Origin: Acidimicrobiia bacterium
GTDB taxonomy: Bacteria; Actinomycetota; Acidimicrobiia; Spongiisociales; Spongiisociaceae
NCBI GenBank assembly: GCA_011523395.1
Contig: WTGW01000041.1
Location: 1 to 60,252, forward strand
Length of the DNA stretch: 60,252 bases
Direction of reading: 5' to 3'
Positions 9,821 through 56,627 of this stretch are shown piece by piece. Position 1 is the stretch's first letter, and each line of letters opens with the position of its first letter. The notes beneath the pieces are model-generated. The model was not told the origin of the DNA, ran no database searches, and worked only from the letters and a program-made list of their open reading frames with translations. Made by a program: the position numbers and the translations under genes.

Positions 9821-10075
9821 AGAACGCGAAAATCGCGGGCGCCTGCCTCCGGCCTAGGGCCCTCCCCCGCCACCACCTGTCCTGCCTGGAGCGTGGCCGG
9901 CCATGCCCGACCGGCTGCCGGGCGATCGGCCTTCGCTCCTCGAAGCTCGTCTGACCCCTTGGCCGGCAAACCGATCGGTCGGTAGCTGTTCACCGGCGTA
10001 GGTGATTGGCGTCAAGCAAGGTATACCGGGGTTGTGACAGATCCGGGCCATCCCGGGGAGAACGCGAAAAATCGG
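9821..10075. repeat. intergenic repeat family, copy 1 (most divergent)
   Basis: Aligns by eye with 12498-12730 and 19357-19606. Shared blocks are CCCTCCCCCGCCACCACC, GAGCGTGG, CCGATCGG and GGGGTTGTGACA. Bounded by CGCGAAAA at 9825 and 10063. Confidence 0.8.
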
Positions 10076-12497: not shown

Positions 12498-12730
12498 AAC
12501 TCGCGAAAACCGGGTGCTCCGCACCGGGCCCCTCCCCCGCCACCACCCATCCTGTTCGGAGCGTGGCGGGCCGCGCCCGGCCGGGAAGCGGGTCCTCGCT
12601 CCACGAGTTTCATGTTCCCTCGGGCCGGCCGTTCCGATCGGTCTCATCTAATCGGCCGGTACTGGTGCTTGGCGATAGACACCATACATCAGGGGTGTGA
12701 CACACTCTGCCCTCCCACTCCCGGGCAAGA
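12498..12730. repeat. intergenic repeat family, copy 2
   Basis: Very similar to copy 3 (long identical runs, for example TGTTCCCTCGGGCCGGCCGTTCCGATCGGT). Starts at CGCGAAAA (12502). No distal CGCGAAAA. Confidence 0.85.
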
Positions 12731-18876: not shown

Positions 18877-18914
18877 AGAAAAGAGGCCGGGGCCCCGATC
18901 ATGGGGCCCCGGCC
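18877..18914 (-). terminator. intrinsic terminator (12-bp GC stem, T-tract on the minus strand), possibly bidirectional
   Basis: GGCCGGGGCCCC-GATCAT-GGGGCCCCGGCC. On the minus strand it is followed by TCTTTTCT. It also lies 36 nt after the plus-strand cysteine-synthase stop. Confidence 0.65.
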
Positions 18915-19160
18915 TACGTTCGAGAATCCAGAATGCCTACCCGTTCTTCATCGTGAGATCCTTAGCCTCACTCGATGCCGCATGAGGACCGGCATGCGGA
19001 CGGGAAAGCCCGGTGGTCCGAGTTGGAGTCGCCACCGGACCGGCGGTCACGCCCAAGGCGCGGCCACCGGAAGCGACCCGTGGCCGCTAGCGCTCGGCCA
19101 CCTCCAGGGTCCTACTAGAACTGTCTAACAAGTCGGATCACCTCCTTTCTCTGGTAGGCG
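18877..19160 (-). ncRNA. candidate ~280-nt transcript with perfect extended SD, 14-codon mini-ORF and a structured GC-rich body
   Basis: AGAAAGGAGGTGATCC (minus, 19135-19150), a TTG 9 nt after GGAGG, the ORF MLDSSSRTLEVAER-stop (19087-19131), hairpins such as CCGGTGGCGA...TCGGACCACCGG, then the terminator above. No family recognised. Confidence 0.35.
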
Positions 19161-19356
19161 CCAATTTAGCGGCCCGTTGTGCATGAGAGGTGCATGACGG
19201 GCCCGGCGATCGCGGGCGGGACCTTCCCGAGGACCCCAGCCCGCAGGCGACGACCGGCCAACCTCAGGCTCACAACGTCACACACGGTGCCGTGAACCTC
19301 AGGAACAGGCCACCTAATGTGACGCCCTCCGCCTCAAGAACCGCCCAGGTGCCAAA

Positions 19357-19606
19357 ACTCGCGAAAAACCGGTGCTCCGCACCGGGCCCCCTCCCCCGCC
19401 ACCACCCATCCTGTGGGAGCGTGGTCGGCCATGCCCGGATGGATGCCGGGAATCGGCCCTCGCTCCATAAGCCTTTGATGTTCCCTCGGGCCGGCCGTTC
19501 CGATCGGTTATCAACGCATCGGCCGGTATCGGTGCTTAGCGATAGGCAATATATACCAGGGGTGTGACAGGTCCAAGCCCCTTCCGCCAGTCCGCGAAAA
19601 AACCCC
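19357..19606. repeat. intergenic repeat family, copy 3
   Basis: Bounded by CGCGAAAA at 19360 and 19593. On the minus strand it carries a TATATT box, the CCGGCCG...CGGCCGG hairpin, the G-tract GGGTGGTGGCGGGGGAGGGG and CCGGTGC-GGA-GCACCGG-TTTTT. Confidence 0.85.
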
Positions 19607-19674
19607 CGGAAACCGAGGGCGCCTGGCTGCTAGTCACAACCTCCGGGTGGCTTGCCCGGGACGGGTAACCGGAA

Positions 19675-28765: not shown

Positions 28766-28799
28766 CCCCGCGGCCGCAGGTCGGGCGACCGGTGCCGAC

Positions 28800-30065
28800 T
28801 CAGAACAGGGTCCGCGCCACCGAGACAACGCGGTAGTCACGCCCCACGATCGGGACCGCCCTCCACTTGTCGAAGGTGGTGCACGGATGCGAGATGCCGA
28901 AACCCACGAGATCGCCCACGGCCAGCGGCGTCTCTTCCTCCAGGTCGATGAAGGCGTGCTGGTCGTTGAGGGCCACCGTCCGCATCGGTGGCGCCGCCTC
29001 GACCACCGCCTCTCCCTTCGTGCGCACCTTCTTGGCGACCGGCAGCATCCCGTCGAAGGAGATGTCGCGGCGGCCCAGTCCCACGATCGCCCGGGCCGGT
29101 TCCGGCCGGGACAGGACCGTCCCCCACACCTCGATGGCGGGGATCAGGTGCTCGGGATAGCCGGTCCTGCCTGTCTCTCCCATAGGGGACGTGCGATGCA
29201 CCGAGCCGTCGTCGTGGGTCAGGTAGCAGCCGCTGCGGATCACCACCCGGTAGGGCTGCCCCAGTTCGGCCCGGGAGAACCGTGCTACCACCCGGTCGAA
29301 GTAGGAGCTGCCGCCGGCGGTAAGGATCAAGTCGGGACAGGGCTCGAACCACCCGCGCCGGGCTACCTCGCAGGCCAGATCCACCATCTGATCGAGGAAC
29401 GCGTCGACCACCTGGAGGGCACTGCGGTCACCCTGGGCTCCCAGGATGCCTTCGAACCCGGCGACTCCCGTCAGTGCAAGATGCGCGGACGAGGCCGCGG
29501 CGGCCGCCACGGCCAATCCCTCATCGATGGTCCTCACGCCCGCCCGTCCTCCGGGAACTCCCATCTCCACCAGGACCGGGAACCGCCGGTCGGGCTGCAA
29601 ACGGCCCAGGACCCCGTCGAAGACGGCCACTCCGTCGAGCGAGTCGACGTAGCACATGACGTCGAATCCGTCGTCCCGGGCTGCGGCCAGCCATTCGATC
29701 TCGCCGGGGGACACCACCTCGTTGGCTATCAGCACCCTGGGAACGCCGCACTCCCGCATGACCTTGGCCTGCCAGGTGGTGGCGGCGGTGATCGCCCAGA
29801 CCCCGTCGTCGACCTGCATCCGGAAGAGCTCGGGAGACATCGTGGTCTTGCCATGTGGAGCCAGGTCCACCCCGTTCCGCAGGCAGAACGAGCGCATGGT
29901 CCTGCGGTTGTGGTCGAGGGCCGAACGCAGGAGCACGGCTATCGGATAGGCGACATCGCTGTCGAAGATCGACCATCCGGCCCTGTCCCCGCCACGGAGC
30001 GGGAACCCCTTCGGCCGGGCGGCGTCCGGGGTGCTCGCGCCGGCAGGCTCGATCAGGTCATGCAC
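28800..30065 (-). CDS. alanine-racemase-fold PLP enzyme, D-serine dehydratase (DSD1)/amino-acid deaminase-like
   Basis: PHGKTT PLP-lysine context and a C-terminal D-serine-dehydratase-like domain (GFGISHPCTTFDKW). The GTG start overlaps the upstream ABC ATPase stop by 8 nt. Confidence 0.7.
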   Translation of the reverse strand: MHDLIEPAGASTPDAARPKGFPLRGGDRAGWSIFDSDVAYPIAVLLRSALDHNRRTMRSFCLRNGVDLAPHGKTTMSPELFRMQVDDGVWAITAATTWQAKVMRECGVPRVLIANEVVSPGEIEWLAAARDDGFDVMCYVDSLDGVAVFDGVLGRLQPDRRFPVLVEMGVPGGRAGVRTIDEGLAVAAAAASSAHLALTGVAGFEGILGAQGDRSALQVVDAFLDQMVDLACEVARRGWFEPCPDLILTAGGSSYFDRVVARFSRAELGQPYRVVIRSGCYLTHDDGSVHRTSPMGETGRTGYPEHLIPAIEVWGTVLSRPEPARAIVGLGRRDISFDGMLPVAKKVRTKGEAVVEAAPPMRTVALNDQHAFIDLEEETPLAVGDLVGFGISHPCTTFDKWRAVPIVGRDYRVVSVARTLF

Positions 30066-56276: not shown

Positions 56277-56354
56277 GATGGTCCCCGCGGCGCCTGCGAG
56301 CGGCGTTCAAGGCTGCGCTTCGCAGGCGACTCTAGCCTAGCCAGGAAGTGTTCC

Positions 56355-56570
56355 CGACACAGCAGAGGGTCCGCGCCACCAAGATAACCTGTTGGTCGTC
56401 TCCCACGATCGGGATTGCCCTCTACTTGGCAAATGTGGCACACGGATACAAGTCGAGGACCCAGCGCGATCACCAACCGCCGACGGCGTATCTTCCTCCA
56501 GGTCGATGAGGGCACTCTGGTCGTTGAGGGCCACCGTCCACATCGGGGGCGCCGTCTCGGCCATCGGCCG
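56355..56570 (-). pseudogene. frameshifted 3' remnant of a D-serine-dehydratase-like gene (paralog of 28800-30065)
   Basis: DNA aligns with 28797-29015 (for example GGTCCGCGCCACC, CCCACGATCGGGA, CTTCCTCCAGGTCGATGA, TGGTCGTTGAGGGCCACCGTCC). A 1-nt length difference splits the homologous peptide between two frames (WTVALNDQSALIDLEEDTP versus MRTVALNDQHAFIDLEEETP). Confidence 0.75.
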
Positions 56571-56627
56571 TCCGTCCTCTGGACTCTCTTCAATGTGTTG
56601 AAAGTCCAGGCTGCCTCGCGCGGTCGA

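Follow-up and report, generated by a model that had tools for sequence, protein, structure and literature searches.

A candidate family of multicopy structured small RNAs in the sponge-symbiont lineage of Acidimicrobiia

Multicopy families of trans-acting small RNAs, such as Qrr1-5 of Vibrio, LhrC1-5 of Listeria, RsmX/Y/Z of Pseudomonas and the rhizobial AbcR and 'cuckoo' RNAs, offer the nearest comparison for an intergenic element of about 235 bp that occurs three times in contig WTGW01000041.1 of the Acidimicrobiia assembly GCA_011523395.1 (60,252 nucleotides, all of which is referred to below as the window). As is generally known of such families, their members are dispersed intergenic paralogues, each with its own promoter and Rho-independent terminator, and are kept across related species; the element described here resembles them in these respects and is probably the gene of a structured small RNA. 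However, the known RNAs are ~50-120 nt long and carry one seed, whereas the RNA predicted here is ~180 nt long, is conserved over nearly its whole body and is encoded at least 6-9 times per genome. It also differs in being absent from Rfam 15 and in having a constant flanking box and trailing arrays.

Other described systems share some of these properties. Protein-sequestering RNAs (6S/Ms1 and the CsrB/RsmZ type) are generally known to fall in a similar size class, with a 5'/3' closing stem and a terminator after it, and conserved GGA motifs are found here as well (GAGGGAAC, CAGGAUG and the terminator loop GGA). Only about four or five such motifs are conserved, and tblastn detected neither CsrA nor Hfq in 1.3 Mb of sampled DNA from several genomes, a weak test in which whole genomes were not searched. 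6S RNA is a rod with a central bubble and has one or two genes per genome, in contrast to the three-way junction and high copy number seen here, and no copy matches the Rfam 6S models. Likewise, orphan riboswitch-like motifs and large non-coding RNAs (raiA and the Weinberg/Breaker-type motifs) are known to combine a multi-stem junction and invariant unpaired nucleotides with a terminator directly after the fold, and to occur in uncultivated lineages; the present RNA differs from them in having no Rfam model match, no consistent downstream gene and an unusually high copy number. With miniature inverted-repeat transposable elements (MITEs) and the repetitive palindromes known as REP/BIME, the 235-bp unit shares short length, non-coding character, multiple copies, an intergenic position and a preference for gene ends, but it lacks terminal inverted repeats, a variable target-site duplication and a transposase, occupies fixed syntenic sites and has a fold under selection.

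With ~67% G+C and genes for metabolism and housekeeping functions, the window is ordinary chromosomal DNA, and all three copies sit between genes on its minus strand. A reading made earlier from the letters alone (the sequence-only reading) had proposed three intergenic copies in one orientation, and a repeat finder, nhmmer and a covariance model, each of which recovers exactly three, agree with it. Matches by nhmmer lie at 10042-9819, 12704-12493 and 19571-19351, with E-values of 5e-58 to 2e-68; covariance model R1 gives copies 1, 2 and 3 scores of 127.5, 141.1 and 161.5 bits, respectively, the next best match in the 60 kb reaching 18.8 bits and the opposite strand of the copies at most 14 bits. 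The R1 match of copy 3 spans 19385-19543. From this match and the positions of its promoter and terminator, the copy 3 transcript is predicted to run on the minus strand over 19364-19542, ~179 nt in all, beginning ~6-8 nt beyond the -10 box and finishing with the U-tract. Minus-strand transcripts are also predicted for copy 2 (12506-12675) and copy 1 (9829-10012): copy 2 has a -10 box TATGGT at 12681-12686, a terminator hairpin at 12510-12527 and the flanking box TTTTCGCG at 12502-12509, while copy 1 has TACCTT at 10018-10023, a terminator hairpin at 9837-9862 and TTTTCGCG both at 9825-9832 and upstream at 10063-10070. Copy 2 has no upstream TTTTCGCG and carries a 7-nt deletion in helix P5; 14 nt separate its end from the stop codon of its convergent NUDIX neighbor.

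The modelled consensus fold is a three-way junction with a body of ~160 nt, followed by the terminator. Its closing helix, P1, pairs 5' CGCCA-AG-CACC with 3' GGUG-G-UGGCG (5' strand CGCCAAGCACC, 3' strand GGUGGUGGCG); in copy 3 the 5' strand, CGCUAAGCACC, occupies 19531-19541 on the minus strand, as do all features of this copy, and pairs with 19397-19406. P1 is 98.3% paired in 83 sequences, and its variation consists solely of changes from C:G to U:G or G:U wobbles. Hairpin P2 (19491-19526, CCGGCCGAU...AACGGCCGG) encloses a loop of ~17 nt that ends in the conserved motif ACCGAUCGG, of which the core CGAUCG is nearly invariant; the palindrome CCGATCGG lies inside the loop at 19500-19507. The hairpin CCGGCCG...CGGCCGG described in the sequence-only reading is present with its palindrome in copy 3; the P2 of copy 1 is divergent. 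The palindromic loop CCGAUCGG could perhaps mediate dimerisation. Junction J2/3 (19467-19490) comprises 24 nt with the nearly invariant unpaired GAGGGAACA, as is evident from its conservation in alignments A4 and A5, and leads to the arm P3-P4-P5 (19416-19466), in which GGAGCG...CGCUCC encloses GGCCG/UGGCC and CCCGG/CCGGG, with 98.4%, 83.1% and 97.1% of cells paired in P3, P4 and P5. The conserved unpaired junction stretches comprise CAGGA in J3/1 and GACCA in addition to GAGGGAACA.

A tract read earlier as a run of Gs does exist at 19386-19406, but pairing and alignment show that it is not free. Its first 10 nt (19397-19406) are the 3' strand of P1, GGUGGUGGCG, so that the 'G-run' is mainly one side of the closing stem; the remainder is a G5-N-G3 stretch between P1 and the terminator hairpin. 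A reading of GGGGGAGGG as a Shine-Dalgarno mimic was tried and rejected, as the central base N varies (A, C or U), and G5-N-G3 is thus not a conserved mimic of that kind. Within the P1 3' strand the pattern is GG-N-GG-N-GG-N-GG, with invariant Gs and variable single-base spacers. This could in principle, as a speculation, form a two-tier G-quadruplex competing with P1, although the quadruplex idea raised for this tract is weakened because the tract pairs with the conserved 5' end.

Support for the fold comes from alignments of the wider family. In a structure-blind MAFFT alignment of 72 distinct copies, 88.5% of the cells at the proposed positions are paired, compared with 24-44% in slid controls in which the 3' partners were shifted by 1-3 columns. 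Sixteen pairs are changed on both sides in this alignment, and none of 500 shuffles reaches the observed values. The model-based alignment of 83 distinct copies gives 92.5% against 23-47% in the slid controls, and the number of pairs changed on both sides ranges from 11 to 16 across alignments. Two helices covary: two-sided compensatory changes affect 8 of 9 pairs in P2 and 6 of 7 in the terminator. One-sided variation against an invariant G dominated an all-against-all covariation scan, which singled out P2 pairs alone and gave no support for a pseudoknot. The aligned helices further contain ~168 G:U or U:G cells, among which U:G occurs 30 times at the first pair of P1 and G:U in 63 of 83 sequences at one pair of P4. 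Given that such cells would be A-C mismatches on the other strand, and given the low scores of the opposite strand with R1, the minus strand is taken as the RNA sense, which agrees with the direction of the promoter and terminator.

Upstream of the RNA body, the aligned copies and their flanks contain a promoter-like pair of sigma-70 type, consisting of a -35 box TTGAAw, a 17-nt spacer that holds TGTCACA and a -10 box TAnnnT. The latter is found at a fixed position in 68 of 72 copies (TACGTT in 38, TATGTT in 17), and conservation in the flanked alignment starts upstream of the pair. The block TGTCACAcccc followed by a TAnnnT box, as first seen in the three window copies, is borne out in each: the boxes are TATATT at 19548-19553 in copy 3 and those given above for copies 2 and 1. 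In copy 3 the -35 box is TTGGAC (19571-19576), and the 17-nt spacer with TGTCACA connects it to the -10 box. A start 6-8 nt after the -10 box, as predicted from these positions, would fall right at the first conserved helix. At the other end, a terminator scan finds a GC hairpin and U-tract, the stem of which shows its two-sided changes in the 72-copy alignment, and a TTTYCGCG tail follows in 59 of 70 copies. The copy 3 terminator (19360-19385) consists of the hairpin CCGGUGC-GGA-GCACCGG at 19369-19385, then U5 and a CGCG box at 19360-19368. The hairpin CCGGTGC-GGA-GCACCGG with T5 that had been ascribed to the unit is accordingly found in copy 3, at 19364-19385, but not throughout, copy 1 having a different and longer hairpin (9837-9862). 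A second hairpin with T6, described just downstream of the helix-turn-helix (HTH) gene, is also real (19602-19620); the terminator-like site of which it forms part, a hairpin with T6-CGCG that includes the 5' copy of the TTTTCGCG box, was delimited by the scan and an 8-mer search at 19593-19620 on the minus strand.

The family extends well beyond the window. Two pattern scans, one anchored on the 3' half in GTDB representative genomes and the other on the 5' half in metagenome contigs, with matches confirmed by profile searches, yielded at least 86 copies, 83 of them distinct, in 77 loci. Among the matches listed, the carriers are only sponge-associated Acidimicrobiia metagenome-assembled genomes (Candidatus Spongiisocius variivorans, Ca. 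Spongiisocius sp. and others) or metagenome contigs whose sample source was not established (prefixes MKWU01, LXNI01 and JGI Ga02...), with at least 6-9 copies per genome. Streptomyces and other taxa also gave pattern matches, but these were not recovered by the profile and were rejected as chance. That the element belongs to no known RNA family, as had been supposed, is in keeping with an Rfam 15 covariance-model search, in which the copies gave no match either at the gathering threshold or with E-values of up to 10. Phage and plasmid collections contained no BLAST match, and a pattern scan of viral contigs in IMG/VR gave three chance matches and no real copy. Partial copies exist in the family as well. 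Those that are partial or decayed, mostly reduced to the 3' half (L119:6431-6515, L152:1753-1835, L103:2788-2867 and L097:2125-2318, where L numbers denote loci of the collection), sit ~100 nt to several kb downstream of full copies, at ~500-600 nt in L119 and L152, an arrangement that indicates local duplication and decay.

Copies are intergenic in 81 of 82 cases. Of 67 copies, 49 face a convergent gene on their downstream side and 18 (27%) have a co-oriented one, at distances of up to 1.3 kb; on the upstream side the neighbor is co-directional for 46 of 70. Orthologous loci are among those counted, so these figures are not independent. The bias towards convergent sites could reflect either selection against transcription running into genes or the tolerance of such sites for insertion. 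The syntenic site of copy 2 is occupied in L077, L100, L101, L153, L175 and L176, and that of copy 1 in L077, L062, L100, L101, L175 and L176. Copies at the same site in different species are 79-99% identical, in contrast to 61-76% among the three window paralogues, from which it follows that the paralogues predate the species. Between species the RNA retains 82-88% identity and the neighbouring coding genes 83-88%, whereas adjacent intergenic DNA outside the element is unalignable. Every examined locus with at least 78% NUDIX protein identity has copies 1 and 2 at the same sites. An outgroup with 58-66% NUDIX identity, to which loci L170, L171 and L173 belong, keeps the gene order E1_dh - DM13 - LOG-like (SLOG/Lysine_decarbox) - NUDIX - DUF3179 - sigma-70. 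This graded series of NUDIX homologues places the gain or expansion of the family in the ancestor of the Spongiisocius-like clade, with stability since. Copies are shown by these comparisons to be stable at syntenic sites and under purifying selection.

Some further features of the copy 1 site are of separate interest. The 230-aa open reading frame (ORF) downstream of this copy encodes a multi-pass membrane protein with no informative matches. Between copy 1 and the 230-aa gene, two Spongiisocius genomes contain a 141-aa lipoprotein-like ORF with a precomputed Pfam match to Phage_VG64 (L175:1485-1910 and L176:1504-1929), which is absent at that place in the window. At the same site the outgroup has neither the 230-aa gene nor the RNA copy, and heptamer microsatellites (GGTGCCA and its inverse) stand in place of the RNA gene at L170:1120-1340.

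The interpretation judged probable, although held with only modest confidence, is that the copies are paralogous genes of clade-specific, independently transcribed structured small RNAs of ~170-185 nt, encoded on the minus strand, which would act in trans and likely bind or titrate a partner. Each copy would be transcribed from its own housekeeping-type promoter into a discrete RNA of ~180 nt. This transcript would close on itself via P1, joining CGCCAAGCACC to GGUGGUGGCG, and would carry two arms, P2 with the loop ACCGAUCGG and P3-P4-P5, before the unit ends in an intrinsic terminator. Presumably the RNA would then act in trans, most likely as an abundant folded molecule binding or titrating some protein or other macromolecule, with the many gene copies supplying dosage. 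A folded, partner-binding RNA is favored because what the old paralogues share is almost all of the body, loops and junctions included, and not one short seed. The autonomous minus-strand unit of ~190 nt in a small RNA paralogue family, put forward by the sequence-only reading, gains support from the conserved promoter and terminator, covariation, G:U pairs, intergenic setting and synteny.

Several observations weigh against this interpretation. P1, P3 and P5 are almost invariant and are supported by conservation and wobble pairs only, without compensatory changes. The folding energy of single sequences is no better than that of shuffles (z = -0.52) and z-scores are not significant on either strand, although such scores are uninformative here because the DNA is GC-rich; in addition, copy 3 folded with the consensus helices lies 5.4 kcal/mol above its minimum free energy structure. 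The -35 boxes of window copies 1 (CCGGAT) and 2 (CAGAGT) are poor, and the promoter, start site, terminator, expression and RNA ends are all deduced from sequence. Clustering of the 346 ORFs within 3 kb of copies identified no partner protein among these neighbors. Finally, the outgroup has no copy anywhere in the syntenic locus, where the NUDIX-DUF3179 gap is just 93-152 nt; both this absence and the convergent bias of downstream genes would likewise be expected of a selfish repeat.

Should the same RNA work otherwise than by binding a partner, the main alternative mechanism is that of a base-pairing riboregulator family like Qrr, LhrC or AbcR, with ACCGAUCGG, GAGGGAACA in J2/3 and CAGGA in J3/1 as seeds. 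This is possible though rather unlikely. The several paralogues, each with its own promoter and terminator, and the invariant unpaired motifs in loops and junctions are what such a family would be expected to show, and terminator-bearing small RNAs are generally known to be common in the host phylum, Actinomycetota. Nevertheless, seed-type small RNAs do not usually show conservation over almost all of a 160-nt body among old paralogues, the motifs conserved here are rich in G and A and not complementary to ribosome-binding sites, and the variable half of the P2 loop is unlike a specificity determinant because it is not conserved within the copy-2 syntenic group. A role in cis has been considered as well, whether as a terminator or insulator between convergent genes, as a source of antisense read-through, or as an orphan riboswitch-like sensor with the terminator as its expression platform. 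It is the orientation of the neighbors, convergent downstream and co-directional upstream in the proportions given above, that invites this idea, together with the hairpin and T-tract that often precede the promoter and the aptamer-like architecture of a three-way junction with conserved junction bases directly before a terminator. The idea is nonetheless quite improbable: since only 18 of 67 copies have a co-oriented downstream gene, and that at up to 1.3 kb, the copies are not leaders; no gene family recurs downstream; a plain terminator needs neither a conserved promoter nor a conserved 160-nt fold; and no conserved helix alternative to the terminator was found. The copies do not form the 5' untranslated region of a coherent gene set, 73% of downstream genes being convergent and copy 2 abutting the stop codon of its convergent NUDIX neighbor. 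That the element could be a protein-coding gene or a pseudogene remnant deserves almost no credence. Short ORFs do overlap the copies on both strands, but many insertions or deletions of 1-2 nt separate the copies, no ORF is conserved and variation tracks base-pairing, not codons. The peptide MFPRAGRSDR, dismissed from the outset as a by-product of the repeat, is indeed the antisense of the conserved junction and P2, and its reading frame ends after ~23 codons.

The remaining explanations concern the flanks of the unit. The direct repeats noted earlier around it (CGCGAAAA) are real. In the window TTTTCGCG occurs five times (9825-9832, 10063-10070, 12502-12509, 19360-19367 and 19593-19600), always on the minus strand and always flanking copies, so as to bracket RNA units only, compared with 0.76 occurrences expected by chance. 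In the family, 59 of 70 copies have the box on their downstream side. A strict pattern also places it ~55 nt upstream of the -10 end in 19 of 70, a share that rises to roughly half when judged by consensus. Two to three tandem copies of TTTTCGCGAGTTTT stand at the 3' end in L022, L060, L099 and L108, and the 3' flank of copy 1 (TTTTCGCGTTCTGGGGAGGGTGGGG) resembles the 5' flank of the family, which hints at an origin by tandem duplication. Repeat analysis also reveals an array trailing copy 3 at 19255-19345 on the minus strand, with about three palindromic units of ~35 nt, each composed of a box CCTNAGGWWC and a GC hairpin (GGCGTCA-N4-TGACGCC or similar); its site at 19294-19308, adjoining the copy, is the sole clear one in the window. 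Array boxes lie within 600 nt downstream of 32 of 79 copies and upstream of none of 83, arrays being present in L013, L015, L022, L034, L038, L040, L057, L060 and others, and 50 of the 51 strict-motif sites in 662 kb fall 0-700 nt downstream of a copy. The arrays fold well on both strands and evolve fast, with 75-77% identity where the RNA has 88-94%, and undergo higher-order tandem duplication. A CRISPR- or guide-like nature was rejected, as the 'variable' parts prove to be degenerate versions of a single palindrome and higher-order tandem duplication is present; the arrays look REP/BIME-like rather than guide-like.

These flanks raise the question of whether the unit is a selfish non-autonomous repeat, that is, either a composite resembling MITE or REP elements or a cassette mobilised through site-specific recombination at TTTTCGCG, with promoter- and terminator-like features that are incidental or self-serving. 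The bracketing of the unit by a constant 8-mer and the fast-evolving palindromic arrays that trail it speak for such a repeat and thus also count against a small RNA gene family, as do the multiple copies in one clade only, the preference for gene ends with a convergent downstream gene and the existence of partial copies. The copies are absent from the same syntenic intergenic sites of the outgroup, and were therefore gained, although these empty sites are too diverged to define exact insertion junctions. Yet the unit has no terminal inverted repeats, its ends carrying the direct TTTTCGCG box instead, and the flanking repeat is no target-site duplication because it is the same sequence everywhere, direct and constant at all copies. 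No transposase or recombinase recurs near copies; among the 346 neighboring ORFs there is no transposase, and only synteny groups and generic enzymes recur. No copy is found in the phage, plasmid or viral collections. Moreover, the same sites are occupied in all examined loci with at least 78% NUDIX identity, absence being confined to the 58-66% outgroup, and old paralogues of 61-76% identity have retained promoter, fold and terminator under a constraint equal to that on coding DNA. A selfish repeat is accordingly regarded as improbable, and the MITE that the sequence-only reading had offered as its alternative fails on the missing terminal inverted repeats, the constant flanking repeat and the lack of a nearby transposase. 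About as improbable, or marginally more so, is that the duplicating unit is a composite self-propagating cassette of TTTTCGCG, promoter, RNA, terminator with a second TTTTCGCG, and palindromic array, which would have spread in the ancestor of one sponge-symbiont lineage. Recombination at the constant box could move such a cassette. Alternatively, the RNA might function jointly with the array, for instance by providing the scaffold of a ribonucleoprotein that would act upon the array repeats or be processed along with them.

Two other non-coding or repeated segments of the window may be recorded. Downstream of copy 3 and on the same strand lies a second conserved non-coding element (18972-19155, minus), with a terminator-like hairpin at 18884-18915 (minus). 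It is 91-97% identical between strains and species, above its flanking genes, and has a sub-threshold Rfam match over the full-length alignment to the Actinobacteria small RNA Ms_IGR-5 (23 bits, gathering score 45) and a weaker match to the Caulobacter small RNA CC2171. Its minus strand at 19135-19150, AGAAAGGAGGTGATCC, is a 16-nt perfect complement of the canonical 3' end of 16S rRNA, such that the plus strand there mimics that end; the mimic is preceded by TAACAAG on the plus strand, and a TTG-started ORF of 14 codons follows AGAAAGGAGGTGATCC on the minus strand. The same motif also opens the Ms_IGR-5 and CC2171 consensus sequences. Elsewhere, two stretches of ~220 bp (28795-29015 and 56354-56573), 27.6 kb apart, are 77-83% identical in the same orientation. 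As the former overlaps the 3' end of a D-serine-dehydratase-like gene (28800-30065, minus), the pair are probably paralogous genes.

Sponge-symbiont Acidimicrobiia are uncultivated, and full-text literature searches found no paper on their RNA biology. The best reading of the sequences is that the copies constitute a new, previously undescribed family of multicopy structured small RNA, present among the matches listed only in this lineage. To our knowledge, few bacterial RNAs combine a length of ~180 nt, conservation at the level of coding DNA and at least 6-9 promoter-bearing copies per genome, and the combination of size, conservation and copy number points to an abundant, functionally important molecule. 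The cassette-like flanks and arrays leave a minority chance of something more unusual, and the constant flanking box, together with the exclusive link of the RNA genes to downstream arrays, may throw light on the way in which such genes multiply in bacteria. As a candidate for a new Rfam family the RNA is an obvious choice; it might also be used to mark the lineage and as an entry point for metatranscriptomic and pull-down studies. Its role could be that of a ribonucleoprotein component, of a sponge for proteins or of a global regulator particular to this symbiotic lineage.

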